Both the position numbers and the translations under genes were made by a program. This document shows, piece by piece, positions 1,393 through 20,000 of a stretch of 20,000 bases of DNA (position 1 is its first letter; each line of letters opens with the position of its first letter). This stretch comes from Psammoneis japonica (lineage: Eukaryota): positions 173,335 to 193,334 of the forward strand of contig QPGO01000140.1 of assembly GCA_008632985.1 (NCBI GenBank). The letters are read 5' to 3'. The notes beneath the pieces are model-generated. The model searched no databases, had not been told where the DNA came from, and was given only the letters and a program-made list of their open reading frames with translations.

Positions 1393-1488
1393 ACTTCCCA
1401 GAAGCCTTTCCTACTGCCTACCCGATGGTATCAAAGCTTGTTTCGGAATTCAATCCGGATACATTTGTTGGGCTTGTGCGTTGAATTC

Positions 1489-1506
1489 AGAGAGAGAGAG
1501 AGAGAG
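1489..1506. repeat. (AG)9 microsatellite
   Basis: Seen directly in the sequence. Confidence 0.9.
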
Positions 1507-1699
1507 CCCTCGTTCTCTCTGGCTTCCTTATTAGCGTCCTGTGAGAACTCTGTCTCGTTCTTTCTCTCTCAACGCTGCACGCCTATTTAAAAAAAAGAAA
1601 CTAGCATGTAAGAAAAGTCTAAGAATTCTTCCGGATGGCTTATGCTCCTCAATTTAGCTCTCTAGCTAAGTAGCTCTCTGCTCTTAGCTAGCTAGGGGT

Positions 1700-1723
<24 letters not shown>
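1700..1723. repeat. (AG)12 microsatellite preceded by a TAGC/CT-rich low-complexity tract
   Basis: Seen directly. 1655-1695 is built from tagc/ctct units. Confidence 0.9.
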
Positions 1724-1730
<7 letters not shown>

Positions 1731-2112
1731 GCAATTGATGTGTAGCGAGTTAGTTTTAAAACTCGAAAACCCGGATGAGGAGACATACCGGTACGAGGTA
1801 CGAGCTCTTCATACACCACGCCAGAAAGGGAAAAAAAGCCAGCGGCTGTATTGTTGTTCTGGTGATGTTCTGACGATGAGACGAGCCAGTAAGAGTGTCG
1901 TCGCTAACTACACTAATGTGCTGATGGGTATATATGGAGTTTGGAGCGAGTGTGACAGCTGGAAATGATGAAGATGTTGCAGGACTCACAACGAGAACCT
2001 CGGGTGTCACGAGTGTCAAGACTCAATTCTATGCGAACCAAAGCCGCGACGACGTCGCTAAGCAGGTTTGGGCTTCGCATAATTTTTCACAATATCAATT
2101 CAATCATCAATC

Positions 2113-5100
2113 ATGCCTCCTAATAAATTGGACGAAGACGAAACAAGCGCACCTGTAAGTCTTCCTGGAAAGCCCTTAAGCAGCTCCAAGGTGCGATCTA
2201 CCAGTATGAGTATGCAGCAACTTATGGTTAAGGTAGAGTTCCACGATGACAACGATGGCTCAGTTATCGCTGTGGAAGTTCCAACTGGAACAAAAGTGAC
2301 AGAAGCAGCCACGAAGGCTGGAGTGAACATTCCCACCCTCTGTCATCACCCTCGTTTGTCTCCGGTAGGAAAGTGTGGCCTCTGCGTCGTGTCTGTTGAG
2401 AACGGGCCGACTCCGACGCAATTGGCATGTTCGACTGTATGCCGAGCAAACGAGGATGGGAGCCCAATGAAAGTGCACGTTCACGGGACGTTTCTAAATG
2501 GGCTTGCTAACGCGGCCTTGCAGAGGAACTTACAAGCCTCCCTCTCTCATCAAACCAAGAAGTTTCAAGACAATCATGACTTTGCGCCTTGCGGCTCTTT
2601 GGAGATTGAAGATCTTGCCAACTTTGTCACCAACCAAAATATTGATACGTCGTCGAGATGTATCATCTATGACCCATCCCTTTGTGTTGGCTGTTCACGA
2701 TGCGTTCGGGCTTGTGATCAGCTTCAAGGTATGAAGATTCTCGAGGCACCTTACCCAAGAGCAACCCTCCTCTCGTCGGTATCGCCCAAGCCCCTCCGTG
2801 TATGACGACACGTGCCGGTCGCCCCCTGTCAGAGACAGAGTGCATTTCTTGTGGACAGTGCACCGTATTCTGTCCGACGGGTGCAATTAAAGAAGTGGAC
2901 CATAACCCACGAGTGATGCGAGCCCTGCTGGACCCCGAAATGGTTGTTGTCCTGCAGACAGCTCCCAGCATTCGCGTCACTATTTCCGAGATGTTTGGTG
3001 GCAAGCCCGGAGATTGTTCTGAAGGCAGACTTGTTGGGGCCGCTAAAGCAGCAGGCTTTCGCTTCGTATTCGATACTAACCTAACTGCCGATCTTACCAT
3101 TATGGAAGAAGCGAACGAGCTTTTGCAGCGCATCGATATTGCCGAGAATGGCACCGATGAAGAAAAGAAGTCTAAGCCTCTTCCCATGTTCACCTCGTGT
3201 TGTCCAGGTTGGATAAACCTGGTGGAGCAGTCTTATCCAGAGCTTATTCCTCACCTTTCCACCTGCCGTTCGCCCATGGGAATGTTATCGAGCATCGTTC
3301 GTCACCACTGGTGGCCTAGACAGACCAACATTCTCAACCAGCACGGCACGGCATCCGTGGAAGCCGAACACGAAGCAGTCGACCAGTCTAAGCTCTTTGT
3401 GGTTGCCGCCATGCCCTGCACTGCAAAGAAAGACGAGATGGCACGACCGCAATTCAAGATGTCCAACGGCAAACCGGAGACGGACGCTGTCTTGACGGTT
3501 CGAGAGTTGGCACGCTTGTTTGAGTTACGCCAGGTTGCCCAACTCAACAACTACAAGTCCTTTGCAAGCATCCCTGAGCTTGTGTACGATAACCCTTTTG
3601 GAGAGTCGACCGGGGCGGCTATTATCTTTGGAGTCACAGGAGGCGTAGCCGAAGCTGCTTTGCGCACCGCCGCGGACGTCTTGAGTGGCAAGAACCTGGA
3701 GAATGTCAAGTACGAATCTGTCAGAGGCATGTATGGTATCAAAGAGTCGACGATTCAGCTTGGTCCTAATGGTGAGGTTGCGTTGAACGTAGCGGTCGCC
3801 CACCAAATGCGAAATGTTCGCGACTTTCTGGCCCAACTTGAAGAAGGTAACAAGAACTACCATTTCATAGAAGTTATGACGTGCCCTGGAGGCTGTATCG
3901 GCGGCGGAGGGTTGCCTCAGAGCAGAGATGAAGATATTCTGCCCAAACGCATTGATAGCATCTATTCTTGGACGAGAGAATGGTGGTACGAAAGTCACAC
4001 GAGAATCAAGCCGTCAAACGACTATACGACGACTTATTGAAGAAGCCTCTCTCCCCACTTTCCCACAAGTTGTTGCACACCCACTACTTCCCTCGACCAA
4101 GGAAGCCACCTATTGCGCTCAAGGCTCCAGCTCTTGTTGCGAAAGTTGAAACCGAGGACAGTCGTAATACTGTCTATGTGGTGTATGGAACGCAGAGCGG
4201 CACCGCAGCTCAAGCAGCCAAGGAGATCAAGCTTGAGTTACAAGGATTCATCGGACAAGCCAAGTTATCACCTGAGCCACAAGTTTGCCTCGTAGCTGGC
4301 AATGCTATGCATCCTGACAAGCTCATGAAGAGCGTTTCTGATTCTCTCGGAACAATATTTGTCACCTGTACGTTTGGCGAAGGTGAGTTCCCGGAGACCA
4401 TGGAGCAACTCTGGGACTATTTGGAAGACTGCAAGGACGACAAGTACGAGGAGTTTCGCTTTGGCGTGTTTGGACTCGGCTCGTCAATGTATGCTGTTGG
4501 CGACCAGTTTAATCGAGCCGCGAAACGGCTTGACAAGAGACTGGAAGAAGTGGGAGGAAGTAGAATGATCGAGGTGGGATTGGGCGATGACCAGCATTCT
4601 GAGTTATATAGGAGTGAGCTAGAGAAGTGGCTCGAGAAACTGTTGCCGAAGCTCTTTGGAAAAGAAGGTGGTGGGGCATCATTGCTTGATCCACCTGAAC
4701 CGTTGTTCAAGCTTGCTCTTGCACCAGGAACGCATGATAGTCAGTTTCGTCCTTTGCCTCCAAGTTATCACTATGTTAAATTGGAATCCGCGGAAAGTCA
4801 AGTGGCTGTTGGGTATGATCGTCCAGCGTCTATCTTCACGTTCGATCTTGACGAAACAGGAGTCCAGTATGAAGTTGGTGATCACCTTGCTGTCCTTCCC
4901 AGAAATCCTTCGCGGGTTGTGGAGAGAATTCTTTCCCTTTATTCAGGCAGCATCAACGGATCAAGTCTGCTGACCGTCGAACCCGTCGATTGTCACAGTG
5001 ATTGTCCTTTCCCTCCGGTGTTGACTGCTAGAGAGCTACTGACTCAGTATCTCGACCTTTGTGGGAGGCCATCCCGTTCATTCTTTAAGCAGCTGTTCCT

Positions 5101-6058
5101 CTTTGCCACTTCGCTCGAAGCTCGCAATATTCTCAGAGCTCTTTTTGAGCGCACTGAGACAAAGTCGCAAGAGGAGCCAGCTCCGTACACCGCACGGCTA
5201 CGATCACAAACCTGCGATCGTGAGAAAGTTAATCAGGAGGAGTTTGAGCGCTACACTGCGACTCATACGTATGCGGACGTCTTGTGTGATTTTGGTTACA
5301 AGGCGTTGCCTCCCTTCGAGTACCTGCTCTCGATGGTGCCAACGATTTGTCCCCGATTGTACTCGATTGCCTCTTCTCCACTTTATCGAAAGAATAAACT
5401 GGATCTGTTGGTTGTCTTGAATGAGTGGACGGATCCAAACATGAAGACGAGAGTTGGTTTGGCCACGCAGTTTTTGTTTGGTGCGGACATCGGAGATAAG
5501 GTCGCTATTCAGGTACGCACAGGCATTCTTCAGCCTCCGGCTGACACAACTACCCCCATCGTTTGCTTTGGTTTGGGATCGGGAATTGCACCGTTCCGCG
5601 GCTTCTTGCAGCATCGGCAACGACAGCACGAGCAAGGCGCGAAGCTTGGACCTGCGACTCTATACGTTGGGTATCGTCACGAGTCAATGGATTATTACTT
5701 GAAAGACGATTTCGAAGAATGGATGAAATTAGGAGTGTTGACCTGTGTGCATCCCGCCTTCTCTCATGATGATCGAGAGAAGCGAGGCGGAAAGCTCTAC
5801 TTCATTTCAGATCTTATTGGCGATAAACCAAAGGACATGGCCAAGGCATTGCTTCTGGAGGAGGAAAAAGAAGAGGAAGACAACCAAGTTCATGTGTATT
5901 ATTGTGGACCTGCACTTGGTATCCCTGAGACCATCCAGCATGCGATGGAGGATGCAGTCAAGCACGAGGAAGGCGGTGGAATGGACGAAGAAGAGGCAGA
6001 AGCCTTGATGGAGCGCATGGTCCACTTGGAGGATAGATTCCATGCAGAATGCTTTTAG
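2113..6058 (+). CDS. hydA: [FeFe]-hydrogenase (group A type) fused to a C-terminal flavodoxin + FAD/NAD(P)H-binding diflavin reductase (CysJ/CPR-like); ~1,315 aa after correcting two 1-nt frameshifts (~2750, ~3969)
   Basis: N-terminal 2Fe-2S domain (IPTLCHHP..GKCGLCVV..LACST). Two 4Fe-4S motifs (CVGCSRCVRAC; CISCGQCTVFCP). H-cluster L1 FTSCCPGW (3189), L2 MPCTAKKDE (3411) and L3 EVMTCPGGCIGGGG (3870). Small-subunit segment RKSHEN..LY..LLHTHY. Flavodoxin motifs YGTQSGTA, TFGEGEFP and FGLGSSMY. FAD motif RLYSIASS. NAD(P) motifs GLGSGIAPFRGF and YYCGP. ORFs 2113-2805, 2802-4040 and 3968-6058 join by adding one base at each junction. Confidence 0.92.
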
Positions 6059-6289
6059 TTTCGCCTGTCCGCTTTGCAGGATGGCTCGGATCGGAGTTGC
6101 GACGCCATTGCATGCTACACTTCTGCATATTTTTTATTATAATAAGTTAGCAAATAGTTTTATCAGGATACTTCGCTTGGTCGGCTTGTTCTACTAGCTA
6201 CTACAGTACAAGGCGAATGCATTTACCGGTATTGTTGATCGGAGCAACATAATCACAAGCACCATGAGCGCTGCACACCTTTGCTTGCG

Positions 6290-7759
6290 TCATTGCGTGG
6301 TGCGTCCGCCGAGACTGTTCATCGACGACTGACAGAGATAGCGATACTCGTCAAGTGTCATTCCAACATCCTTGGCACAGGCGGGCAGCGTGACGAGCTG
6401 GCCGTCTTGTTCTTGAACCATTGTGACAAGCACGGTCGCCATGGTCCTCCAGAGCTTGGTACCTAGATTAGGATTGGCTTCAGCGTATGAAAAGCACCTC
6501 AATAAACTCGAAAGCTGCTGCTCAATCATTCTTCTGGCTTCTTGTGGAGTGTCTAGATCCTTGTAGGCTCTGGGCAGCTGCCTCTTGAGAATCGAGTGTA
6601 AACCCGCACAGCGAGAAGCACCAATGTCAGAAGAATCCACAACCGGCGGCAGCTCTGGATGAGATTCGCCATTCTGTTGCATACGTATCCACTCGATTGC
6701 TTGAGGGGTGATCCAGTTGGAGAGAGTAGTCCATATTCTCATAAAGGCCCGTGGTTCGGGTGGTGGGAGCGCGTCACCTTCACTAGAGTCAAAGTCACAA
6801 TCACCGGCTCCTTCCTGTCTCATGATCTCCGCCAACATGTACAACGTTTCCTCGTCATTGTTGCTCGATACTTCCTCCTCCTCATCATCATCTATTCCCA
6901 TTGTAACAAGATTTTCTTCCTCTTCCTCGTCTGTTTGCTCTTGTACTTGGTGCCGTCCGTAGAAATCGTCGTACAATCCAATTGACTCTTGCCGTTGCTC
7001 CTCCATAGCTTCTTGATACTCCGCCGGGGCCATCACCGAGAAGCTCAGGTCAGTTTCAATTCCAGACTCCTGATTAGACAAGTAATTTGCTGTTTTAGTA
7101 CCAGGTTTTGCGCCACTAGCATGAGCTAGCAACTCCGACATTGAAGACAAAATCAGTGGGTCATCGCTGGAGGAATTCTCTTGCTCGCTACTACTTTGCT
7201 TCTTTGAAGTGTCCTTGTTTTCATCAGCCATACTGCTCGGCTTGTATCCTTCAATAGAGTCGTGGCTGTCTTTTACGTTGGGGGCACACCGGCTTGTAGG
7301 TAAACTGCTGACGGGTCGTTCCACCACAAAATCCTTAACAGCGGCAGGTGGCAACAGTTGCGAGTTTTCTTGTTGCAGTGCAGAGCTGCTCTGCTCATGA
7401 CTGACAGACGATAATTCTGCTACTTTTGAGTACTTTGGTTTGCGAAGAATACCCTTTACGGGTGGTTTCGTATCAGCTACAGTCTCGGAAGTCAAAGGAT
7501 CTCCATTGGAAGCAGCAGCTTGGTGTGTTTCATCAGTCGTTGCACTTGAGAGGCACCACGAATTCACTTTTTGTCGCGTTTCTTCCACCATGGTGTTACT
7601 CTCAAATACCTTGTTGTCTCTATCCTTGCTTACGCTTGGAGAGCCTCCGCTCTTCCGAATTGTTGGACGCACATGTTGCTGCTTCATCATGGCCGTGTTT
7701 TGTGTGGGAGGGATAGGCGAGAGCGTTTTGGAGTTTGCAGCGGGACTCAAAACACGCAT
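6290..7759 (-). CDS. RPAP2 (Rtr1) C-terminal-domain-like protein with a long low-complexity/acidic N-terminal region
   Basis: Long ORF with normal dinucleotide use; first ATG at 7759. The C-terminal ~150 aa (FMRIWTTLSNWIT...LKRQLPRAYKDL...IEQQLSSLLRCFSY...KLWRTMATVL) resembles, from memory, the C-terminal helical region of plant/animal RPAP2. No Rtr1 zinc-finger cysteines are visible. Confidence 0.55.
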   Translation of the reverse strand: MRVLSPAANSKTLSPIPPTQNTAMMKQQHVRPTIRKSGGSPSVSKDRDNKVFESNTMVEETRQKVNSWCLSSATTDETHQAAASNGDPLTSETVADTKPPVKGILRKPKYSKVAELSSVSHEQSSSALQQENSQLLPPAAVKDFVVERPVSSLPTSRCAPNVKDSHDSIEGYKPSSMADENKDTSKKQSSSEQENSSSDDPLILSSMSELLAHASGAKPGTKTANYLSNQESGIETDLSFSVMAPAEYQEAMEEQRQESIGLYDDFYGRHQVQEQTDEEEEENLVTMGIDDDEEEEVSSNNDEETLYMLAEIMRQEGAGDCDFDSSEGDALPPPEPRAFMRIWTTLSNWITPQAIEWIRMQQNGESHPELPPVVDSSDIGASRCAGLHSILKRQLPRAYKDLDTPQEARRMIEQQLSSLLRCFSYAEANPNLGTKLWRTMATVLVTMVQEQDGQLVTLPACAKDVGMTLDEYRYLCQSSMNSLGGRTTQ

Positions 7760-8865
7760 ACCGGCCAGACGCAATCGCACCCAACGGAAATTTTACACGG
7801 ACAAACGCACTAATGATAAAATTTTGAAATTTTGAATGGCCATTTCCAACTGCTCCTTGGATGCGAATTCCGCTTGTTTTCATGCCGGTGGCATGTTTAC
7901 CATCATGCATCATTGTGAGACTTTGGTGACGCTGCACAGCAGCAAAAGCAAAGAGCATCATTGTTTTGGTGAAGAGTGAAGAGACAGCAACCAGAGTGCA
8001 AGGATTCAGTTTGACCGGCGCCACGGCGATGAAAAGCAGGAGATCGTCCATTCTGCAAAAGCTGCACATGCAACAAAGGAGCAATCGGAGTGCACGAGAA
8101 ACCAAGCCTGTCAACAACAATGAGAGTCATCCAAGTCACAGTGCTGCCAAGAAGAAACAGCAAGAACAAAAGCCATTGAGTGTCGTTTTGCAGAATGAGA
8201 ATGAAGTCGAAACCACTCCTCCTGAAGGTTCCAAGAACAAACAATTGCAACCGAGAGGCAGCCACAGCAAAGCTTCTCCTTCAACAAAAGAGAAACAACC
8301 TGCTTCTTCACTGATGGCACTTTTGCCATCTGCAGATTCTTGTTCAAGCAACAAGCGTGCAAAAAAGAAGCCTCCGGTTGCAGCTTTCAATCATGACGAT
8401 TAAATTGCATCATGACACCACGTCAAAAATGGAAGCAGAGAAGTTGGGAGCCACTCACCCCCTTGTAACTTCTCTCCATGCACAAGTTGAGGGGAGTGCA
8501 GTTGAGCAGTCCAAACACTTTGTTGTGTGAAATGTCTGAGTTTCCATCATCCGGGAGAGGGTTCAAGTTGGCGAGCCGACTTTGGTGATTTGTGCGGAAA
8601 ACATGCTGAGCTCTGTGCACATGGAATCTGGCCCACTTTTGCACCCATGCCACCTTGGATGTCTCAAGAATGGCACAGGGCAGGCAGATTGTCCAAAACT
8701 TTGAGTGGGAACAGGGATGTGTGTGCCACAAACTTGGTCGCTTGTTTCGCGTCGAAGACAAATGCATCCACCAACCAGAGCACAAACTGCAGAGCTTGCA
8801 TGCAGAATTCTGTGGGGCAAATGTCACACAGAGTCCCACCTGGCTAGCAGGACTGGAACCTTTTG

Positions 8866-9430
8866 CCATGTCTTGAGCCTGAAGATGGTCGAATGTGTCC
8901 AATGGTTGCCAACAAGCCTCCGGAAATGTTGGACAAGGAGTGGGCATGGCTCAATGAGCTCAGCTTTGGTGCCATTGTTTTTGCAAATCCATGAGACAGC
9001 ATCAAGCCCCTGCCAGAAATCATTGTGGATGGAGATTTAGATGGAGACCTGTTTTTTGCATGTTGGAACAAAGAGATCTCAACTCCATTTGGCTCTCCCA
9101 CCTGAAGACATCCCATTGCCAGCAGAGGACAAGGATGCATCAACTGCACCAACCACCAATGACAATTGGTTGAGAGGAACACAAAAGATCATGTTGAGCA
9201 CTTGTGCTGCAGGTGAGATTCACTCATTGATTGGAAAGCTGTGTGCACTTTCTGCCAAGACATCCGATTCATCTGCTCAATGCAACAAGGATCTGGATGC
9301 AATTGCATTTGCAAAAGCATTCAAACAAGCACTTGAGTTTGGAGAGCACAGAGGAAAGATTGAGCTTCCTGTCCATCTTCATGACAAACTTCCTGCAAAC
9401 CTCCAGAAGCATCCAGCTCCTCTCAAATAC
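8866..9430 (+). pseudogene. Relic of a cellular RNA-dependent RNA polymerase (RDR/QDE-1-type, DLDGD catalytic motif), C-terminal portion
   Basis: The frame from 8866 reads PCLEPEDGRMCPMVANKPPEMLDKEWAWLNELSFGAIVFANP*DSIKPLPEIIVDGDLDGDLFFACWNKEI (DLDGD at 9034-9048; TGA at 8992, probably from CGA). After a frameshift it reads DNWL...LIGKLCALS...DAIAFAKAFKQALEFGEHRGKIELP, matching the RDR pattern GxL...ALDxxKHG. Confidence 0.75.
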
Positions 9431-9751
9431 CATGTGCCACCTGCCACTGTCTGCAGTGCAGGACTTGAGTGACACTGCAAGAACCAACATCCAGCCCACT
9501 CTCATTGCAGAAGTTGCTGGAGTGAGGGCAAAAGAGCATCTTCTTTTTGTTGTGCAATTTCAACTCATTCTTTGACATGTGTTGGATGTTGCAAGTGCCA
9601 GTGCACAGAGTTGCACCATTGACCAATGTGCTTTGTTAGAGCAGAAGAAAGAGTGCAGGGTTGTCTTGCAGCATTCTTCTGTGCCATCTGATGGGGGGAG
9701 AAGCAGCCACACTGGCGTTCCGTCTGCTCCAGATGCTGGCAGGAAGTGGCG

Positions 9752-9771
9752 CTCTCTCTCTCTCTCTCTCT
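9752..9771. repeat. (CT)10 microsatellite
   Basis: Seen directly. Confidence 0.9.
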
Positions 9772-12208
9772 GGAGACAGCTGGAATGGAGACTGCTTGCC
9801 CCCACCCCTGCGCACTGCACTGTTTTTTTTTAGAGGGAGCTTTCCATGGGCCAATCATTGATTGAGGCCCTTGATCAATGCAAAGCCAACGATTTGGTGA
9901 GAATCCGAGCTCAAGCAAGGTGTCCATTTCCACCAAAACCATCAATCAACGGGAGTGTAATGGCCGGTCAATCAAGAAAACTGATGGACAGACTGCTCCA
10001 TCTTGCCAGAGCAGAGATCAAGCCATCCACTTGTGAGGTCTGCAGGTCATGTGGAAAGAAGAAAGGAAGAAACGGCCCTCTGTGTGGATGATGGTGCAAA
10101 GGTTTCCACTCTGGGACAACTGCCAGAACAGCTCCTGATTGAAGCAAACCATTCTTGCATGCAGCAAAGGGCAAGAAGCCTCATGTGGGCATTGCATTTG
10201 TTGCTCCAAGGCTTTGAAAAGTCCTCTTGTTGCTTTTTTGAGAAGATGCCTGGAGGATGCAGTTGTTTGCCACAGAGTTGGTTGAACCAGCACAACCACC
10301 AGAGCCTTGTCATGTGCCTCTGAGGGTCTTCATCCACCCACGCTTTTCATGTGTGGTGACTCCATGGACTCCTGCTGCCTGGCTGCTGCTGGCTGGCCGA
10401 ACTGACAACCATGGTCTGGAACCCACCCAGGAGGGGGAGGCATCAGAAATGAGCTGAGACCCAGTGCGGGCACCAGCACACCAAAAAGCTTGTGACTCTT
10501 GCAATCAGTTGACAAGAGAAGTGCTGCTGTCATTGCCAAACAGCTGTCTGGGGTTAAAAGCTCTTGCACCAGAGTCAACCTTGCAGGTGCAGAGAGAGAT
10601 TGAGTTGCATGACTTGTTGTTGACCCAGATGTGCTCTCTTTTTGGGTCCAAAACTCATTGAGCTCCTTGAAGCCAACAACAGCACCTGATCATGGTGAGA
10701 ATCTGCACCCCTTGTGCAATTGAAAAAAACCCCTTTCTGTGGAGAGGGGGGTTGGCCCAAGCAGGCTCAGGATGAGAGTTGTCAGAAGGCAAAAGGGAGC
10801 TTCATCGAGCATTCTGAAATGACAGTGTTGTGGCGGGTTGCCCAAATGCACAGATTGTGTTTGCAAAAGGAGTGATGAGAAAAACAAAAAGAGCGAGTGT
10901 GCATGAGAAGCAGAGGTGAGCCTCTTGATGTTGAAGCTTGGCATGGGAAAGGTTTTCATGGCAAGTGACCACATCACATTTTGTTGTTCAAAGCTCAAAA
11001 TCCACCTCGCTGCCCTCGTCATCCTGTGCAGAAACATCTGCACAGTTGAAAAAAATGAAAACAAGTGCAGAGTGGCACACTGCCACCTGTGGGGAACAGT
11101 GCAGCATTTTCAAGCAAGGGTGCATCATGTCAGTGTGACCACTTCCCAAGCAAAGTTTCACACTCCATTTTCTGCAAGCCCAACAAAACATGCTCCCCAC
11201 CTGCCCATCATGTGCCACACTTGCATTTTTTTGTCATGCCACTTTGAGGTTCACCGCTGCACACCATCACCAAATTTGGAAAAATGCAAAAGCAAAGGGC
11301 TTGAAGAATTCCATCCAATGACGGCATCATGTGCAAGGTCTCAGACTTTTTTTCATCTTTGCCTCAAATGAACAAGTGTCACATTTTCAACTGTGCAACA
11401 ACTGTGGGCTTGTGCAGGGTGCCCACTGCTGACAGGACCCAAGCGATGTTTTGTTTGTTGAGAGAAAGGTGGCACAATTGTCAAGAAAGTCTGCTCTTGT
11501 TGCTCAAATCTTGCAATGTGCAGGTGTGAGTTGCAGGCTCAAGGTGGCAACTTTCCATGCAAATGGCAGCTTTTTGTTGTTTCTTGTGCATCAGATCTTT
11601 TCTTTTTGTTGAAATGAAAAGAGCCCCCCTGTTTGTGTTCCTGTGCCTGTGATTGTGCCAGAGGATGTTGCGCCAGCATGATTGCACAGTGGCAGTGTGA
11701 TGTGGGAAAGCTTGTTCTTGTCACAAGTTTTTTTCTGATTTCACAGTTTTTTGATTTGTTGGCAAGGCAATCTGGCTCTGCAGTGGCCCAAGCGCTGTGC
11801 ACATGAATTGTGCCAAGACATCAAGAACCCCCAAGCTGGGAGAGCCTAGACTTCCAAAGAGACACACCTTGCTCTGCACAACCTTTTGCGTCCTTGCTCC
11901 TGCCCCTTCTCTCCCTGTGCCTCTGGCAACCACCACCCGCCAATCTGTCCATCTGCCCACTCTTGCTGGTGTGGCATGCACACAGCCCACTTGTTTTGGA
12001 CAAGCAACATGTGTTGTGGCTCTCACAACTTCATTTGATCTCTTTGGCTGCACCCTGATGCATTTCCTCCCTGGTTTCTGTGCTGTGTTGCTGGCTTGCC
12101 CTTTGTTGCAGGCACAACGAGACCTTTCCTGGATTTTTGTGTGGTGTGTGTCCAACGTTCCAGCCAGCCTCATCCTTTTTACAAAGTCCAGCTTGTGAAC
12201 TTGCGCTG

Positions 12209-12210
<2 letters not shown>

Positions 12211-12252
<42 letters not shown>
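12211..12252. repeat. (CA)21 microsatellite
   Basis: Seen directly. Confidence 0.95.
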
Positions 12253-12255
<3 letters not shown>

Positions 12256-13481
12256 GACACAAGTGCTGCACATGCACAGCTCCTGGCAAGGTCAGGACAG
12301 GATTGCCATTTTTCAAATGGACACAACTGCATTCATGTGGCTTCATTTCTCTGACCTCTGACAGCACTTGGCATCGCTGAAAAGCTCACCTCAATGTCTT
12401 GCCATCTGGTCAGTGAGTGGGGACAATGTTGCCCCCACATTCTGCACAGCTCTCATCAGCAGTGTGCAACTGTGGACAACATTGCTCAGTGCAGTCAAAA
12501 AAGTTGTTCTTCCCCTTGCAACAAACAGCTTCTTTGCTGCTGCTCATGACGGACGATGCTCTTTTCTGTCGGGGGCATCTGGCACAGAGGAGGTGTGCTG
12601 CGTCCAGAAGTCACGTGAACCACCCCCCTGCAGGAAGCTGAAAGATGGCTCTGTTCAATTTTAAAAAGGTGCAGTGAGCTTGGCTTTTTGGCCAGCAAAA
12701 ATTGTCAGACTTTAGAAAAATGAACGTGGCATCGCTTGTTGCACCTTGTTGGCACAAAAAGCAACAAAGAGATTGCTGTGACATGCTGGTGTGTGTGTGC
12801 ATGTGGGTGAGGGGTGGGGTTGGGGCATTTGAGGGAATGTGACCCTGGTGTTTTGTGCACAGTTGGTTGAGTGTGTGGTGGTTGTGGCTGTGGCAGCAAC
12901 TTTCCTTGGTGCAAAGATTTGTCAGCTTCAAAAGTCGGGAAATTGCTGGGGGACTTTGAAAAACGCTGGTGCCAAGCAAAACAGCTCTCTCCCCTGAGTT
13001 GCCATTGCATCAAGTGTGTTGTGTTGTCCTCACACTGTGTTGACTTGCTCTGGGGCTCCCAACAGGCCAGCGATTGTCTCAGCAGCAGGGTGCTCGCTGG
13101 CTGGTGCTGCGCGCTCATGCTGCTGGCAGTCTGTGTCATTGCAGTCGACTGGTGCCCTGCCTCCTCCTGGCCAAAGCTGTGGGCACTCCTGCAGACATGC
13201 CAGAGCTGAGAAAAGCTGCTTTGCAAACAAATGTGCTCCTGCTGCAGAAGCTGCTGATCTCCAAAGCAACAAGAAGTGTGTGTGTCACCACGAGGATGAA
13301 GCGCTGTCGCAGCTCTCAAAAACATGTCAGCAAGATAAGAGCCATACCGTAGTAGAATGAAGCAGCCACACTGACATTCCAGAGAGTTGTCTTCGTGGAA
13401 GTCAGTACAAAATCTACGCGACCTCCCCGTCGCCAATCAACTGTGTCAAGAGCATCAAGAGGGAGCATAGTGAGTTTGACC

Positions 13482-14748
13482 ATGGCGCCTCGATCGCAAG
13501 ACGACTCCGCTGCTCTCTTGCGTGAGTTGTATCAGCACAATGATTATTTCGATTCAGTCGTTGACATGATCCCTGCGAAGCTCTACGTTGCAGGGAACTC
13601 GGGTAAGACACAAGCACAGAAAGCTAGCTGCAGAACACAACATACCGCTAGGATCTAGAATCACTCGGGATTGCTAACTCATTATTTGAACTCACTTGTT
13701 CTTTTCTCAAGGCGATGGTGACGCTCTGAATAGCAAATACTTCAAGGGACAGCACAAGGAGTCAAAAGAGCTGAAGCGAGCTCGTACAAAGGCTGCGAAA
13801 CGAGCAAAGTACGACCCGGATCAAAGCGAATCAACGACTGAAACAAAAGTGAAGAAGGAACAGCAGCAGCACGAAGAAGCGAGTAAGGAACTAAGCCAGT
13901 TGGTAAGCTCTGAAGCTGTTGAGGATATGCGAGTTGATGGGAGCGAAGAGGCAGCGAAAGAGACGAAAACGCAAGGCAGCGCTGATAACAAGTCGCGAAT
14001 CGAGGCTCTGAGAGCTAAACTGCACGCCAAGATTGCGGAGAAACGAGCTCAGCGTCCCATGAGCGACGCTTCTACCATCAGCAAGCGTGCTGCGCGACGT
14101 GCCGAGAAACAGAGACGCCAAAAAGAGGCTCAAGGGAAAAAGAAGAACCGAGTGAATAACCAATCTTCTCCCTCTGTAGCACACGCAATTACAGCTTCCA
14201 ACGCTGCGACTCCTGATATCATCCCATCTCCCATGGATGATTTGAAGCATTTGGATTTTGGAACCTTGGCTGGACTGAACAACATTTCCACCAAAAAGAA
14301 CAACAAGAGTCTTCTCAATCTCAACAAGACCAAGAACTTGGAGAAGATGCTTCACGACGCCGAACAAAAGAAGCAAAAGCTACAGGAGCTGAAAGAGTCG
14401 GCTGCTCAAGAGGACAACGAGCAGGCAAAGGGTATCATGTGGAAGGATGCTCTCAAGGAAGCCAGTGGAGAGCGCGTCAAGGATGATCCAGCACATATCA
14501 AGAAGCTGTTGAAACGCAAGGTTGCGAAAAAGAAGAAGTCGCAAGTCGCCTGGAAGTCGCGTTTGACCCAAGTTCAGCAACAGGCCCAAGACCGGCAGTC
14601 GAAGCGTCAAGCCAATTTGCAACAGCGACGACAAACCGGAGTCAATAAGAAACAAGTGGATCAACCAAAAAGGAATCGCGCCGGATTTGAGGGGAGGAAA
14701 CAAGGCTTTCTGAACAAAGGCCGTGGCGGCGGTGATAAGGAACAATAG
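13482..14748 (+). CDS. RRP14: Ribosome biogenesis protein RRP14/SURF6 (exons 13482-13602 and 13712-14748)
   Basis: Exon 1 HNDYFDSVVDMIPAKLY and exon 2 KAAKRAKYDP fit the RRP14 N-terminal domain. The C-terminal WKDALKEASGERVKDDP..KKLLKRK..KKKSQVAWKSR...RAGFEGRK fits the SURF6 domain. Splicing restores the frame. Confidence 0.9.
13603..13711 (+). other. Spliceosomal intron (109 nt, phase 1) in RRP14/SURF6
   Basis: GTAAGA donor at 13603, branch-like GCTAAC at 13673, pyrimidine tract and AG at 13710-13711. The join gives TCG G|GC GAT in frame. Confidence 0.85.
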
Positions 14749-15124
14749 ATGCTGCGCTTCATTCGTGCATTACATTTCTTTAGATGTGTTTACGCTTTAG
14801 ACTTTTCCTCTTTCCAAGGTTGGTTTAATGAAACTGATTTCCCGCCAATCATATTACTTTCTGCTTCTTTTTTGTTTTGGTGGGCTTGGTAGGCTTAGCT
14901 CCCTTTTCCTCCGGTTCTAGAGATTGACGCGACAGATATAAAGGATGTAAGAGAAACTGAGGCGACGTGTAAGCACATTCAACAACGTTGGAAGTTGGAA
15001 AACACCTGCTTACCAACTGTCGTGGCCGCCTCTGACCTTGGCCGTTTGATTGAGCGATGATCCATCTTGTGGCTTCAAACAAAATGCTCGTCTAATGTGT
15101 TCCTTTCAACTCACACTTTACAGT

Positions 15125-15554
15125 TGTTATAGGGTAGAGTACCGTAGCTCCAGCCAGAAACAGCTCCAACAAGCATGCAAGCAGCAGCAATAAGAGCAGC
15201 AACGACCTCCGCTCCGCAACGACCACGACAATAACAGCAACTCGTATGGCACTCAACTTCGAGTCGGTCAGTCACGAGTCAACAACCGAGTCTGATTCAC
15301 GGATGACGCTCCCGGTCATGGATCTCTTCTTCCGGAAGAAATGTCCGTTGAGTCTTCTAGCGATAGTAATCGGAGTGACACACACGACCGTTAGGTCATA
15401 ATGTCATCTCCAATCCCTCGTGAGATCTTCTCACAATTCGTATCTTTAGCGTATCTTATTGTCCCAAACCCACTTCTTATCATCCTCTGTTGTATTGTAC
15501 AACCTCAAGAGAGTCCTGAACTCTCCATCCTACACAGTGTATTGTTGTATCCCA
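15125..15554 (+). repeat. Putative 5' LTR (TG...CA, ~430 bp)
   Basis: Begins TGTTATAG at 15125 and ends TATCCCA at 15554, 3 nt before the PBS. The second LTR is outside the window, so the left boundary and candidate TSD (ACAGT, 15120-15124) are unconfirmed. Confidence 0.55.
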
Positions 15555-15557
15555 AGT

Positions 15558-15571
15558 GGTTATGAGCCCAA
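15558..15571 (+). promoter_or_regulatory. Primer-binding site complementary to the anticodon arm of initiator tRNA-Met (half-tRNA priming)
   Basis: GGTTATGAGCCCAA is the reverse complement of TTGGGCTCATAACC, the tRNA-iMet anticodon stem-loop. This is the PBS type of Drosophila copia and yeast Ty5. Confidence 0.8.
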
Positions 15572-15632
15572 TCCACGCACCGGTGTCAACTCGTGACGGA
15601 GTTGCTGCCACTCGTTCGTCTCGTCACAGACG

Positions 15633-15742
15633 ATGTCCCATCCAACGGCGATCTTCTATGTCGCAATCCAACGGCGATCATCCATGTCGCAATCCCTGCC
15701 TGCCAATCGATCCTCTATGTCGAATCATCCACAACCATGTCC
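15633..15742 (+). repeat. Imperfect ~20-33 bp tandem repeats in the retrotransposon 5' leader
   Basis: Units start ATGTC at 15633, 15658, 15684, 15717 and 15737. The core ATCCAACGGCGATC is repeated in the first two units. Confidence 0.7.
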
Positions 15743-18700
15743 ATGGATCCTGACACCGTCAAGATGTTTGCTGAGGCCTTCGCCAAGATGCAAACCTCGA
15801 CCAACCCTCCTGCGATCCCCACGCCGCTTCGCGGCGGCATCCACCACTCTCATGGAGTGCATCTGGGTGGTTCGGCTCTGAACAACAAGTGCGAGCAGAC
15901 CGACACCCGCACCCACCATTTTGCCTCGCAACGTCGCCATCCGAAAGCTGTCGACTCTGTCGAGCGATCTCTCAGAGATCAACTCGCTTCGGCAACCACA
16001 TCCAAGTTCAACGGCCAGATTGAGTCATCCAACGGTTCCAGTGCTGAACTGGACAAGGGCCACTTCGTCAAGACCATTCAGGACTTAATCGAGTCGCACG
16101 GACAAGAAACTTTCTACCATCTCAAGAAAGTCGACGGCAAGGTCGTGTGCCTTTTTGATCATCTTCACGCCTTCACTGTCAAAGACCTTGAGAAGGAATG
16201 TGAGACCCGTGTGGCGGCTGCAGGTGACGAAGGCTACGATCAGTGTGAAATCGATGACATCGGCTTGTCACAACTCATCGTCAAGTCGCGCATCACCGAA
16301 ACCTTCCGTGAAAAGATTGAAACCAAGTTTAATCACTTGAAGAGCTACAAGGATCTTCCGGGGTCTGTCTCATTTATGATGGCTCTGGATGCCTGCAACG
16401 CCAGTGCTCTGGTTGACGTCAAGGCCGCCAAGGAAAAGTTGAACAACTTAACTCTGGACAACTGCCCTGGCGAAGACTGCACCGAGCTTGCAACCGAAGC
16501 TCTGCGCCTGCTCAAGATCATGCAGACGGACTGTGCGTCACCAGTTGAAACTGGGTCCACTGTTTTATCTAAGGTGTCAAAGACATCCTCCGAGTTTTTC
16601 AATCATCAAGTTTTCGCCAAGCTCGACTCCATCAAGCGCTTGGAGCGCAAATGTCGCTTGCGTGACCCGGCAGAAGTCCCCAAGGATGCCGACTGTGCGG
16701 ATCTTGGACCTGTTGGCCTTGTTGGCTGGATCACCAAGACCCATGGCGAACTCATTAGCGATGAAGATTGGCCTGCCTTAGCAGCCAAGCTCCCGGAATC
16801 CAACCTCGCCAAGGACAACTCGGAAAAGCATTGCCACGGCTGTGGCAAGGTTGGGTGCACCAAACGCACGTGTCCCACCTGCAAGGAGCAATGCAAGAAG
16901 GACAAAAAGGGCACGGCGGACAAGTCCAAGGATGACCCTCCGGATGTCCGGAAGACCAACCCTTCCAAGAAACCACCCAAGCCGGCCTGGCGTTTCGTTC
17001 ACAAAGGTGCCACTGTCACCGACGAGAAAGGCACGACCTGGCACTGGTGCGACAAGTGTGTGAACAAGGAAACGGGCAAGAAGGGCATGCATCAAGGCCA
17101 CTCCTCCGCTCAACACACCGGGAAACCGTCTGTCAACACCGAAACCACCGCTGCGGCAAATTTATCTGCTGTGTCGGACCCCTCTTCGGGCATTCCTTTT
17201 GGTCCTCCCGAGCAGACGACGTCTCCGCCTACAGCCGACCCCTCTGACCCTAACGAGCTGGTTTATTGCGGCATGTGGTGTGCACCTGTGGACGACTCTT
17301 TGAGTTCGACTCCAGTGACTACGACCGTCTCGTTCACTCCTGCTCCATCGGCCGAGAGGGAGACTGCCGTGGCCAAACCCGCTCCCATCTTGGTTGAAAC
17401 AGTTGACCCCGAAGATGCTGACGATTGCTCCGAGCACTCCGACGCTCACTCCTCTTTTGACTCCCTACCGTCAGCTATCGAGCTATTTCCGGCCTGTGCT
17501 ATGCACGAGATTCAAAATCCGGACGTGTTTTATGACACGATCGCAACTCACGTGGAAGGTCTGTCCGACGATGTGTTAGACGATCTCGTTTCCGGGGCAA
17601 GCATCCTACCTTTCGAAGACAGCTACGAGCACTTACCTCCAAGCACCCAGTGTCGCGGTTTCGAATTTTACGATCCCGAACCCCAAGATGTTGATTGTAG
17701 CGTCGAGGAGGCAACGCCGAGCTCTCGTCTTGAGCTTTTCTGGAACTTCTTGAAGCTCCGAGTTTTCTGGCTGTTTGCTGTGTTCTGGGAAACGGTGCTA
17801 CACATTTGCTGTGCGCCGATTCCTGTCTTACCTCGTCGTACACGCCGTAAGGCATTCATCCCAACCATTCACGGTTTCCCCTCTACCTGGATGGTGCTGA
17901 CTGGAGCTATCATGGTCTGGGCGTCTGTTTTCAACGGTCAGCTTCCCACGTGTCCATTCTCCAATGTCCCTTCTCGCTTCTCCAAAGCTAGCTCTCAGGT
18001 CTGCTCGATCATTGAAGAACTGGACGATAAGATAGTGTTAGATCCGGGCAGTTTGGTGGAGTGCAACAAGATCAAGGCGCGACAAGTGCTTACCGAATTT
18101 GTGGAGCGCGATCCGGACCATCATCTGAGCAAGAAATTCACGCAGCTCTGGGAGAACGACGTATGCTCTTCCCCAGGCCGCTGCATCCCTCCAGCTCTAG
18201 AAGACCTCGAGTCCCACTTCGACACCTGTGATTCAGAGGAAGCCCTCGGCCCGCTCCCGACCGAGCCGAGCCACTGCTTTGATGTGGTTGAGGAGCTCTC
18301 TCCGGACTATTTTCGTTTCGACGAGCTGTCCACCAAGTTTGGTTTCGTGGACACCACTCCATGGCAAGACCCTGTGAAGCTTCTCCAGGCAGCTACTGAC
18401 GGAACCGAAGCCCATCCCACTCATACCTCTATGCAGGTGTTGACGGGCCAACGTTCTTTGGCACAACTCGCCGCCGACCCGCAAGCTTTGCTGAGCCTAG
18501 CACATGAGCGCCACACCGTCACATGCGATGCTGGCGCATCCTTGGCCATTGCTTACGATGAAAACGACTTTGTCGGACCTCCAACGATCCCTGATGGCCC
18601 ATTGAAGCTTGGGGGTCTAGCAAATGGCTTAACCATCGCCGGCATCGGACCCGTCTCCTGGGTTTTCCATGACGAGGACGGCTCTGAGCTCGTCGTCAAG

Positions 18701-20000
18701 ACGATGGCGCACCATGCACCTCAGGCCGGACAATGTCTTCTATCCCCACAACGCCTCTACAGCAAGGAACATGGCGTGACAGGAAAATGTGAGGGAGACG
18801 AGGACTCATTTCGAGTGCATGTTGATGGCGTCGGTTCGCTCAAGGTCGCGTGCGCGTCAAATCACTTGCCGGTTGCGTCTGTGACCAACGGGGTGGCACC
18901 CGCTCCTCAAGTCAATCTGTCTGTGTTGCACGAGGACAACCAGAACCTCACCACCGGTCAGAAGCTCCTTCAAGAATGGCACTTCAGGTTTGGTCACCTG
19001 AACATGCCACGCATCCAAGGCCTGCTTCGGGCCGAACCTTTTCTCCGACCCAAATTCAAGCATGCTTCGCGTTGCGACATTCCGCGGTGCGAGGTGTGCG
19101 AACATGCCAAAGGACATCGCCGAACCCTCAAGTCTGCCAAACATGCGGCTACTCCAGAGCGTGAGGGTGCTCTTCGAGCCGAGCATCTACGTCCAGGCCA
19201 AGCCGTCAGCGTGGATCACTTCGAATCCCGTCTCCTCGGCCGAACCTGCGACTCCTGCGGGAAGGCCTCGTCCCAGCAATACAAAGGAGGCTGCATTTTT
19301 GTGGATCATGCCTCCGGTTACCTGCACATTGAACACCAACTTGGTTTCTCTGCTGTGGAAACGGTGCGAGCGAAGCAAGCGTTTGAGAAGCACGCGATGG
19401 ACCACGGAGTCATCATCCAAGAATTTCTTGCCGATTCTGGCGCTTTCAAGGCCAATGCTTTTGTGCAACACATGCGACAGCACGAACAACGTCTACGTTT
19501 TTGCAGAACCAACGCCCACCATCAGAACGGCGTCGCAGAACGCGGCATTCGCTCCATCTCCAACATGGCGAGAGCGATGCTCCTCCACGCATCCATCCGT
19601 TGGAAGGGGGGCATGGACAGCTCTTTATGGCCTGTGGCCGTGTCTCATGCCGCGCACATTTGTGACGTGACTCCCAACGCTCAAGGCTGCTGCCCCGCGG
19701 ACATTTTTACCGGGACTGCTGCACCCCGACATCGTCTTCGCGACATCCACGTCTGGGGCTGTCCGGTCCATGTCCTTGATCCGAAACTTCAGGAAGGCAA
19801 GAAATTACCCCGCTGGCAACCCCGCACTCGTCGTGGTCTCTTCCTCGGCTTGAGCAGCATCCACTCCAGCGAGGTGCCCCTTGTGCTTAATCTTCAGACA
19901 GGAAGCGTCACTCCCCAGTGCCATGTCATGTTTGACGATCTCTTTGCTGCCGTCTCTTCGATCGCGAGGGAGAGTGAGCCGCCAAGCCACTGGGAAGAGT
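15737..20000 (+). CDS. Copia gag-pol polyprotein (gag, zinc knuckle, protease, integrase), open to the window edge but heavily missense-mutated and probably non-functional
   Basis: ATG at 15737 with no in-frame stop to 20000 (~1,421 codons; absent from the ORF track because it has no stop). Knuckle CHGCGKVGCTKRTC (16832). Protease TCDAGAS (18521). Integrase WHFRFGHLN..CEVC, SVDHFES, FLADSG, HQNGVAER, HVWGCPVHVLD and RRGLFLG. Confidence 0.9.
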   Translation, partial: MSMDPDTVKMFAEAFAKMQTSTNPPAIPTPLRGGIHHSHGVHLGGSALNNKCEQTDTRTHHFASQRRHPKAVDSVERSLRDQLASATTSKFNGQIESSNGSSAELDKGHFVKTIQDLIESHGQETFYHLKKVDGKVVCLFDHLHAFTVKDLEKECETRVAAAGDEGYDQCEIDDIGLSQLIVKSRITETFREKIETKFNHLKSYKDLPGSVSFMMALDACNASALVDVKAAKEKLNNLTLDNCPGEDCTELATEALRLLKIMQTDCASPVETGSTVLSKVSKTSSEFFNHQVFAKLDSIKRLERKCRLRDPAEVPKDADCADLGPVGLVGWITKTHGELISDEDWPALAAKLPESNLAKDNSEKHCHGCGKVGCTKRTCPTCKEQCKKDKKGTADKSKDDPPDVRKTNPSKKPPKPAWRFVHKGATVTDEKGTTWHWCDKCVNKETGKKGMHQGHSSAQHTGKPSVNTETTAAANLSAVSDPSSGIPFGPPEQTTSPPTADPSDPNELVYCGMWCAPVDDSLSSTPVTTTVSFTPAPSAERETAVAKPAPILVETVDPEDADDCSEHSDAHSSFDSLPSAIELFPACAMHEIQNPDVFYDTIATHVEGLSDDVLDDLVSGASILPFEDSYEHLPPSTQCRGFEFYDPEPQDVDCSVEEATPSSRLELFWNFLKLRVFWLFAVFWETVLHICCAPIPVLPRRTRRKAFIPTIHGFPSTWMVLTGAIMVWASVFNGQLPTCPFSNVPSRFSKASSQVCSIIEELDDKIVLDPGSLVECNKIKARQVLTEFVERDPDHHLSKKFTQLWENDVCSSPGRCIPPALEDLESHFDTCDSEEALGPLPTEPSHCFDVVEELSPDYFRFDELSTKFGFVDTTPWQDPVKLLQAATDGTEAHPTHTSMQVLTGQRSLAQLAADPQALLSLAHERHTVTCDAGASLAIAYDENDFVGPPTIPDGPLKLGGLANGLTIAGIGPVSWVFHDEDGSELVVKTMAHHAPQAGQCLLSPQRLYSKEHGVTGKCEGDEDSFRVHVDGVGSLKVACASNHLPVASVTNGVAPAPQVNLSVLHEDNQNLTTGQKLLQEWHFRFGHLNMPRIQGLLRAEPFLRPKFKHASRCDIPRCEVCEHAKGHRRTLKSAKHAATPEREGALRAEHLRPGQAVSVDHFESRLLGRTCDSCGKASSQQYKGGCIFVDHASGYLHIEHQLGFSAVETVRAKQAFEKHAMDHGVIIQEFLADSGAFKANAFVQHMRQHEQRLRFCRTNAHHQNGVAERGIRSISNMARAMLLHASIRWKGGMDSSLWPVAVSHAAHICDVTPNAQGCCPADIFTGTAAPRHRLRDIHVWGCPVHVLDPKLQEGKKLPRWQPRTRRGLFLGLSSIHSSEVPLVLNLQTGSVTPQCHVMFDDLFAAVSSIARESEPPSHWEE

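Follow-up and report, generated by a model that had tools for sequence, protein, structure and literature searches.

Within a 20,000-nucleotide window of Psammoneis japonica DNA (contig QPGO01000140.1 of assembly GCA_008632985.1, positions 173,335 to 193,334; "the window" means this whole stretch, and all coordinates below are counted from its first letter), a block of about 5.5 kb between two divergent genes is almost devoid of the dinucleotide TpA and poor in CpG. Our analysis suggests that this block is probably non-functional DNA in which two context-specific transition processes have come near to completion, one acting on TpA and one on CpG. A copia-type open reading frame (ORF) in the same window carries the TpA signature at an intermediate stage. 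The evidence comes from the dinucleotide composition of the block and its borders, from the relic of an RNA-dependent RNA polymerase (RdRP) gene inside it and from the copia ORF.

The block was defined as positions 7820-13335 (5516 bp) and has a G+C content of 49.1% compared with 51.3% in the flanks. It contains 14 TA dinucleotides, which corresponds to an observed/expected ratio (o/e) of 0.04 in a count over the whole block, whereas the two flanks contain 299 (o/e 0.61) and 140 (o/e 0.38). At the flank rate of 30.3 TA per kb 167 would be expected in the block, and 1000 mononucleotide shuffles of it gave a mean of 358 (standard deviation 14.6, minimum 307). The scarcity described in an earlier note on this DNA, about 14 TA and more than 10-fold fewer than in the flanks, is thus borne out by the counts. 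The same holds for its TA-free run of about 1.3 kb: 1292 bp separate the TA at 10555 from the TA at 11847, and the chance of such a gap at the flank rate is about 1e-17. As a reference background we took 80 related metagenome loci, in which the lowest TA o/e of any of 1076 one-kb windows was 0.22. The depletion begins and ends abruptly. On the left, the final TA of the flank stands at 7817 and the next ones follow at 7898 and 8401; on the right, the TA at 12713 is followed by those at 13336, 13345, 13350 and 13353, so that 0 TA in 623 bp give way to 4 TA in 18 bp, and TA is normal from 13336 onward. These positions, together with the ATGs of the neighbouring genes at 7759 (minus strand) and 13482, which were read directly, agree with the sharp edges claimed before. 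Six-frame translations of the block contain 0.00-0.11% Tyr, compared with 0.63-2.92% in the flanks, and 5.4-7.7% Cys and 4.6-5.6% His, as the description of its frames as Tyr-free and Cys/His-rich had implied. We share the earlier view that the depletion is a mutational footprint and not codon bias.

Inside the block, TA o/e is uniform at 0.03-0.08 in every sub-segment. CpG is depleted as well, an observation that the earlier note lacked and that we add here: the 74 CG of the block amount to an o/e of 0.22 (flanks 0.89 and 0.94), with a gradient that falls from 0.53 at the left edge to 0.10-0.16 further in. TG and CA are enriched, with 630 (o/e 1.81) and 589 (o/e 1.73) occurrences, respectively, and their order along the block is random (runs test z = 0.14). 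Within the window, the depletion is restricted to particular stretches. The genes have TA o/e values of 0.36-0.66, and the other non-coding stretches (1535-2112, 6059-6289, 13336-13695 and 14749-15592) have values of 0.67-1.05 for TA and 0.91-1.11 for CG.

The composition also bears on the direction of change. TG and CA together account for 22.1% of all dinucleotide steps in the block, 7.5 points above the 14.6% of the flanks, while the deficits of TA (2.8 points) and CG (4.65 points) add up to 7.4. Pyrimidine-purine steps in total amount to 23.7% in the block and to 23.8% and 23.4% in the flanks. Transitions within TA and CG steps would produce this mass balance and the constant pyrimidine-purine total. 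From the two fluxes a G+C shift of -1.9 points is predicted, and -2.2 points are observed.

Half of the 28 strand-wise contexts of the 14 TA steps that survive in the block are TTA/TAA and one is ATA/TAT, whereas in genes and spacers of the window these two contexts account for 18-28% each. The TA contexts of the copia ORF trend like those of the block survivors. A neighbour preference of the process acting on TpA is therefore possible, although 14 sites give no more than a hint. A 22-nt direct repeat links positions 9700-9721 within the block and 13359-13380 just past its right edge, in the upstream region of the SURF6/RRP14 gene. The two copies are identical at 20 of 22 positions, with G in the block copy and A in the outer copy at both mismatches, and the likeness does not extend in either direction. 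By a rough estimate the repeat is too long to be due to chance. A GATAA motif that we spotted by eye at both borders was dropped as its occurrence is within chance.

The block can be divided into the following parts, which are given here together with the copia ORF:

7820-8461, no strand assigned: left part, A-rich; TA o/e 0.04, CG o/e 0.53; no Pfam or PHROG match
8462-8865, no strand assigned: piece of a high-copy repeat, kind unrecognised; TA o/e 0.08, CG o/e 0.31
8866-9078, plus strand: RdRP relic, piece 1, with the DLDGD catalytic motif and one in-frame TGA
9104-9433, plus strand: RdRP relic, piece 2, in another frame, reaching the C-terminus of the family
9434-13335, no strand assigned: about 3.9 kb of single-copy DNA nearly free of TA; TA o/e 0.03-0.04, CG o/e 0.15-0.25
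12211-12252, no strand assigned: (CA)21 microsatellite (Tandem Repeats Finder, 21 copies, 100% matches)
15593-19999, plus strand: copia-type ORF, running open at the window end; 61 TA remaining, TA o/e 0.28, CG o/e 0.93

As judged from its homologues, the segment 8866-9433 is a truncated and frame-shifted C-terminal relic of a diatom-type RdRP gene. The Pfam match of the relic to RdRP is weak (E 0.0012 in a six-frame scan with stops read as X). A phmmer search with its 80-residue translation (8866-9106) against 1.84 billion representative sequences retrieved 396 proteins at E<=0.001, with a lowest E value of 8.7e-23; the best matches show 56-61% identity and lie near the C-termini of the homologues. 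The Pfam domain RdRP (PF05183) was found in all eight of the top homologues that were scanned, and the DLDGD motif is located at 9033-9047. In tblastn searches with eight full-length homologues piece 1 was matched at 54-61% identity, and seven of the eight also matched piece 2, at 33-46% identity and in a shifted frame. The relic comprises only the last ~190 residues in two frames, and tblastn detected the N-terminal ~790 residues nowhere in the window. Its nearest named relative is a protein of Cyclotella cryptica. A homologue search with piece 2 returned no protein and one with piece 1 a single protein at 55% identity; in a PDB sequence search, RdRP chains appeared only at E values of 0.12-0.5. 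The frameshift might be an assembly error because the assembly contains at least one indel error, after position 3966; the truncation is not explained in this way. Homologues of the relic carry varied N-terminal modules, for example repeated chromodomains (P0008) or KOW/Spt5-like motifs (P0012). The RdRP family is a large one: at E<=1e-10, 225 of its representatives are contained in a library that was clustered at 50% identity.

Copy numbers were estimated from X1, the one DNA run found to contain the block, as the summed depth of contigs with at least 80% likeness. The depth rises from ~60 to 1232 (bin 8005-8671) and 3753 (bin 8672-9338), with loose ends at 8462, 8657 and 8843. For comparison, it is 46-197 in each bin of the flanking genes and 1326-4307 over copia. 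Sequences like 8462-9340, the relic included, are therefore numerous in the genome. From 9339 to 13340 the depth is flank-like in every bin (53-132). Segment 9434-13335 has no match in Pfam, Rfam or PHROG. For the block as a whole, Pfam and PHROG revealed no viral genes, long terminal or inverted repeats were absent, and a homology search in purine/pyrimidine code against the rest of the window returned only the (CA)n microsatellite. One Pfam match to MFS_1 was at chance level (E 0.063). The earlier note had seen no retroelement hallmarks in the block. This stands in so far as Pfam finds no retroelement domain there, but the block does contain a high-copy repeat (8462-9340) with the RdRP relic.

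The relic allows the polarity of the changes to be assessed inside the block. It has 2 TA in 568 bp (o/e 0.05) and a CG o/e of 0.10, whereas the matching 570 bp in all 37 of 37 homologous metagenome loci contain 9-43 TA (o/e 0.42-0.81) and have CG o/e values of 0.47-1.24. Since the RdRP family has normal TA, the TA-poor state of the relic is derived. The comparison of protein sequences covered 85 columns that are conserved in 135-161 homologues, and the relic departs from the family at 17 of them; P0125 (843 aa, Tyr-poor and repetitive) was judged a spurious match and dropped from this comparison. Among the single-base differences, four of the five A:T>G:C changes are at TpA and five of the six G:C>A:T changes at CpG, with C>T before G in 3/3 and G>A after C in 2/3 cases. 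The others comprise two TA>TT, one other transversion, two multi-step differences and an ambiguous one. Four Tyr-rich columns read F, C, F and H in the relic. The Phe at the first of these may be ancestral, as the sequence DLFF also occurs in P0014, P0126 and locus L008. The in-frame TGA presumably arose by CGA>TGA, and some homologues have Arg or Lys at this position. P0078, P0126, P0014 and locus L008 have Cys at a conserved Tyr column, or Cys/Trp in place of the Arg of their relatives; the DNA of L008 is nonetheless ordinary (TA o/e 0.66), with a mildly low CG o/e of 0.56.

The copia-type element, which spans from ~14.9 kb to the window end, shows the TpA signature in a coding sequence. Its ORF encodes 0.88% Tyr compared with 3.04% in 120 homologues, 3.5% Cys compared with 1.8% and 4.8% His compared with 3.3%. 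At the seven conserved Tyr columns (at least 70% Tyr in at least 25 homologues) it has His three times, Cys twice, and Phe and Tyr once each. In twelve control homologues, 194 of 219 such cells still hold Tyr, 6 hold His and none holds Cys (Fisher p = 2e-6). Other conserved residues are kept in copia (Cys 6/6, His 13/13, Trp 9/9, Phe 14/15, Arg 16/17). Taking the protein-family consensus at a 50% threshold as the ancestor, we found 71 differences at 362 conserved columns. A>G changes were preceded by T in 9 of 12 cases and all 10 T>C changes stood before A, which places 19 of the 22 A:T>G:C changes at TpA. G>A followed C in 5/6 and C>T preceded G in 2/2 cases, and the remainder consists of 17 transversions, 16 multi-step and 8 ambiguous differences. 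On the coding strand, 9 A>G and 10 T>C changes lie at TpA; the two strands have therefore been changed at TpA to a similar extent. Outside the block, the copia ORF contains the three longest runs free of TA. With TA o/e values of 0.03-0.08 in the block and 0.28 in copia, and with the same signature in both, the earlier proposal that the block is the near-saturated end of the process seen in copia is supported.

Compared with the window, other copia copies in X1 show CA instead of TG at 15634-15635 (7 contigs) and 16148-16149 (2 contigs), among 40 of the 821 rows of copy differences. An ancestral TA resolved both ways would give such double differences. The best homologues of the copia ORF are 41-49% identical over at least half of the query and at most 69% identical over shorter stretches; the nearest named one is a protein of Fragilaria crotonensis. 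As these searches returned no close paralogue of copia or of the relic, their changes were polarised at the protein level. The region 14749-15592, which is partly high-copy in X1, is probably the long terminal repeat (LTR) or leader of the element. The start of the ORF contains a 26-nt tandem repeat (15633-15695) of 2.5 copies with 89% matches.

We propose the following mechanism. The block would consist of a truncated RdRP copy in a repeat and of ~3.9 kb of unidentifiable single-copy DNA, all of it non-functional. A locally targeted hypermutation would convert the T:A pairs of 5'-TpA-3' to C:G and would read as TpA>TpG or TpA>CpA, depending on the strand that is changed. A second process, decay of CpG to TpG or CpA of the 5-methylcytosine-deamination type, would act in addition. 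Both would turn self-complementary pyrimidine-purine steps (TA and CG) into TG/CA, and because both feed the same products, TG/CA would be in 1.8-fold excess while the pyrimidine-purine total is unchanged. The conversion of TpA to TpG or CpA never yields a stop from a sense codon, and it eliminates TAA and TAG. ORFs that are hit therefore remain open while their proteins are ruined by replacements such as Tyr>Cys/His, Ile>Met/Thr and Val>Ala. It is because no stops are made that long ORFs would persist in all six frames of the block and that the copia ORF would look intact, with copia representing the same process part-way. The two processes are separable, since copia has lost TA (0.28) and kept CG (0.93), and since TA is uniform in the block whereas CG is graded. 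The agent acting on TpA would be an enzyme, in the simplest case an adenine deaminase that acts on TpA in DNA, as has been proposed for the chlorarachniophyte Bigelowiella natans (Mettrop et al., bioRxiv 10.64898/2026.01.13.699255, 2026). TpA is its own reverse complement, and the attacked base is for this reason indistinguishable in sequence. The target would be silenced or foreign chromatin, and the sharp edges would reflect the borders of such a domain rather than selection on the two promoters.

The signature matches the hypermutation described for B. natans. According to the preprint on mutation-accumulation lines of this alga, 231 of 302 new point mutations occurred in integrated giant-virus and virophage regions, nearly all those in the viral regions being TpA>TpG/CpA at a rate of ~6e-7 per site per generation; its genome contains 124 clusters of at least 3 kb of TpA-poor, CpA+TpG-rich windows, and an ADAT2-like adenine deaminase is put forward as a candidate (10.64898/2026.01.13.699255). 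As described there, TpA changes to TpG and CpA on both strands and leaves the same long-term footprint as in the block. When the thresholds of that study are applied, the block qualifies in five consecutive 1-kb windows (8001-13000; Rho_TpA 0.02-0.07, Rho_CpA+TpG 1.64-1.90). In both cases DNA without a host function is targeted. Reverse-transcriptase-bearing genes are reported among the depleted set of B. natans, and its nucleocytoplasmic large DNA virus (NCLDV) region is single-copy, as is most of the block. The origin of the targets is selfish for copia; the block consists of a high-copy repeat with an RdRP fragment and ~3.9 kb without identifiable origin. There are also differences. B. natans is a member of the Rhizaria, whereas the host here is probably a diatom and thus a stramenopile. 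The purge is far more complete in the block, with Rho values of 0.02-0.07 compared with the 0.45 reported for the NCLDV region. CpG is strongly depleted in the block and goes unmentioned in the main text of the preprint. Pfam and PHROG detect no viral gene in the block. Finally, TA steps make up 6.0% of the B. natans genome as given in the preprint and 3.0% of our window flanks, a gap that makes B. natans an unlikely source of this DNA. A full-text literature search retrieved no report of TpA-directed hypermutation in diatoms, and this preprint was the sole paper found on the signature (10.64898/2026.01.13.699255).

Fungal repeat-induced point mutation (RIP) resembles the process proposed here in that context-specific transitions at the DNA level inactivate repeats and leave a dinucleotide footprint with sharp borders. 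RIP, however, converts CpA/TpG to TpA and therefore acts in the opposite direction. In the block, TpA/ApT is 14/265 = 0.05 and (CpA+TpG)/(ApC+GpT) is 1219/618 = 1.97, the reverse of the values that the RIP index thresholds assign to RIP. Moreover, a dependence on duplication is not evident here as most of the block is single-copy. Methylation-driven decay of CpG agrees with the CG o/e of 0.10-0.53 along the block, with the gain of TG/CA and with the 5/6 G:C>A:T changes at CpG in the relic, but it explains only the CG share of the mass balance (4.65 of 7.4 points), and copia has lost TA and not CG. APOBEC3 and ADAR enzymes likewise hypermutate selfish nucleic acids. APOBEC enzymes change C in a strand-asymmetric manner, whereas A:T pairs are changed on both strands here. 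ADAR enzymes act on one strand of RNA, whereas both strands of DNA are affected here, including chromosomal DNA that is not a retroelement. ADAR shares a preference for U/T before the edited A, as noted in the preprint (10.64898/2026.01.13.699255).

Several observations weigh against the reading that two targeted transition processes shaped the block. Two of the relic's four lost tyrosines became Phe (TA>TT), a change other than the transition we propose. A position-wise DNA comparison of the relic with its 12 distinct closest loci did not reveal TA>TG/CA since these loci are too divergent. Polarity in the block itself is taken from only 17 amino-acid differences and, by analogy, from copia. 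Processive single-strand tracts, as many deaminases leave them, were not seen in the runs test over the block. The LTR side of the copia element (14749-15592) has a TA o/e of 0.67 compared with 0.28 in the ORF, so that the loss is uneven inside a single element. In addition, the non-coding stretches that keep TA are short and may be under selection, so that a genome-wide bias is possible.

Such a bias would consist of untargeted TpA>TpG/CpA change and CpG decay throughout the genome, with the block as the sole long unconstrained stretch of the window. The genome looks compact, the intergenic spacers of the window measure 231-844 bp and may all be functional, and TA is already low in the genes (o/e 0.36-0.66). 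We still regard an untargeted bias as distinctly unlikely, because all four other non-coding stretches have ordinary values (TA o/e 0.67-1.05, CG 0.91-1.11), because TA resumes within a few bases at the right edge (0 in 623 bp, then 4 in 18 bp) and because the flanking genes retain synonymous and inter-codon TA. The process in B. natans is also described as local, at ~1000-fold above background (10.64898/2026.01.13.699255). The signature may instead stem from an attack on the thymine of TpA rather than on the adenine, for example through a TET/JBP-type enzyme that forms 5-hydroxymethyluracil, with T>C resulting from subsequent mispairing or error-prone repair. In dinoflagellate DNA, 5-hydroxymethyluracil favours TpA, and our data do not distinguish A>G from T>C (9 and 10 changes in copia; 630 TG and 589 CA in the block). 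This variant is compatible with the two-process reading. We consider it rather unlikely, as no datum favours thymine over adenine deamination and the B. natans preprint proposes an ADAT2-like candidate (10.64898/2026.01.13.699255). RNA hyper-editing from A to I by an ADAR-like enzyme, followed by reverse transcription and insertion, would fit the preference for U before the edited A and the presence of a copia retroelement among the targets. Editing of one strand would give A>G only, though, while copia has 10 T>C next to 9 A>G and TG and CA are similarly frequent in the block, most of which is single-copy and has no retroelement feature; this route is barely credible to us.

Selection against TA and CG could in principle act on a long RNA that avoids UpA-cutting nucleases, or on a zone from which TATA-like cryptic promoters or insertions of TA-targeting transposons are excluded. 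The block exactly fills the gap between two divergent promoters, and avoidance of UpA and CpG has been reported for many cytoplasmic RNAs and RNA viruses (PMC3829696). Yet the block holds a truncated, frame-shifted and stop-bearing relic whose conserved residues have been altered by the process, the same signature damages conserved tyrosines of copia, no Rfam family was found, and to act on single dinucleotides along 5.5 kb, selection would need a strength that is not plausible. We therefore judge selection to be very unlikely. A technical origin, either a contaminant or misjoin from a TA-avoiding organism or base-calling errors at modified TpA/CpG in long reads, is in our view extremely unlikely, although one indel error or more is likely in the assembly (contigs of X1 and of a further run, X2, contain a base after 3966 that it lacks) and many sites differ from X1 in all contigs. 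X1 contigs contain 0.68 of the sampled 31-letter words of the block; we estimate that almost none would survive if a third of its TG/CA were miscalled. The nearest relatives of relic and copia are both diatom proteins. A single X1 contig of 2685 letters spans 12264-14909, across the right edge, with 2 differences. This contig and the flank-like depth over 9339-13340 speak against contamination or misassembly, which the earlier note had named as grounds for abandoning its interpretation; X1 is possibly the source sample of the assembly, and its support is to that extent not independent.

The remaining features of the window are:

2-1534, no strand assigned: CLC channel gene
2113-6058, plus strand: [FeFe]-hydrogenase fused to flavodoxin/FAD/NAD domains, three ORFs in the assembly
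6290-7780, minus strand: left flanking ORF, family unrecognised, ATG at 7759; TA o/e 0.58, CG o/e 0.82
13482-14748, plus strand: right flanking gene, SURF6/RRP14 family (Pfam SURF6 1.3e-27, RRP14 8.2e-5)

The [FeFe]-hydrogenase fusion combines 2Fe-2S and 4Fe-4S domains, large and small subunit domains and a CysJ-like flavodoxin/FAD/NAD-binding part. In contigs of both X1 and X2, 3966 is followed by an additional C that would merge the last two ORFs of the fusion, and the split at this position is probably an indel error of the assembly. The left flanking ORF has no Pfam family at E<=0.01, and the label RPAP2-like that it had been given could not be confirmed. In the SURF6/RRP14 gene, an X2 contig lacks the 109 letters between 13601 and 13711; this gap with its GT..AG ends indicates an intron. 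Because of this spliced contig X2, which is labelled 'DNA?', looks like RNA. X2 has no contig over 8005-13340 and covers both flanking genes, which is not evidence that the block is silent; no RNA dataset containing words of the block was found. Four proteins of the window have no exact match in the protein collection. Judged by its sequence relatives, and in keeping with the long ORFs, the short intron and a G+C content of about 51%, the host is probably a diatom or a close relative.

To our knowledge, no natural process that mutates A:T to G:C in a targeted manner in chromosomal DNA was known before the 2026 preprint on B. natans. The window presents an end state, the block, and an intermediate, the copia ORF, side by side. 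Elements mutated in this manner keep long ORFs and may be taken for intact genes or for transposons that are still active; scanning for TpA and TG+CA would be a simple way to flag them. Should the agent be a TpA-specific DNA adenine deaminase, it would be of interest to developers of base editors. Going further, and with doubt slightly outweighing belief, we suggest that diatoms, and perhaps the stramenopile-alveolate-rhizarian lineages, might possess a chromatin-guided defence, a 'reverse RIP', that changes TpA on either strand of silenced DNA, by deamination or in another way and at any copy number. It would be faster than and independent of the decay of methylated CpG and would disable genes without creating stops, with the block as its saturated end state and copia as an element that is still being eroded. 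If this reading is true, a natural editor of A:T to G:C in DNA would have been met at work in vivo for a second, independent time, and some species of the group concerned are genetically tractable. Were the case confirmed in so distant and ecologically dominant a group of algae, the process would prove to be widespread and no mere curiosity.

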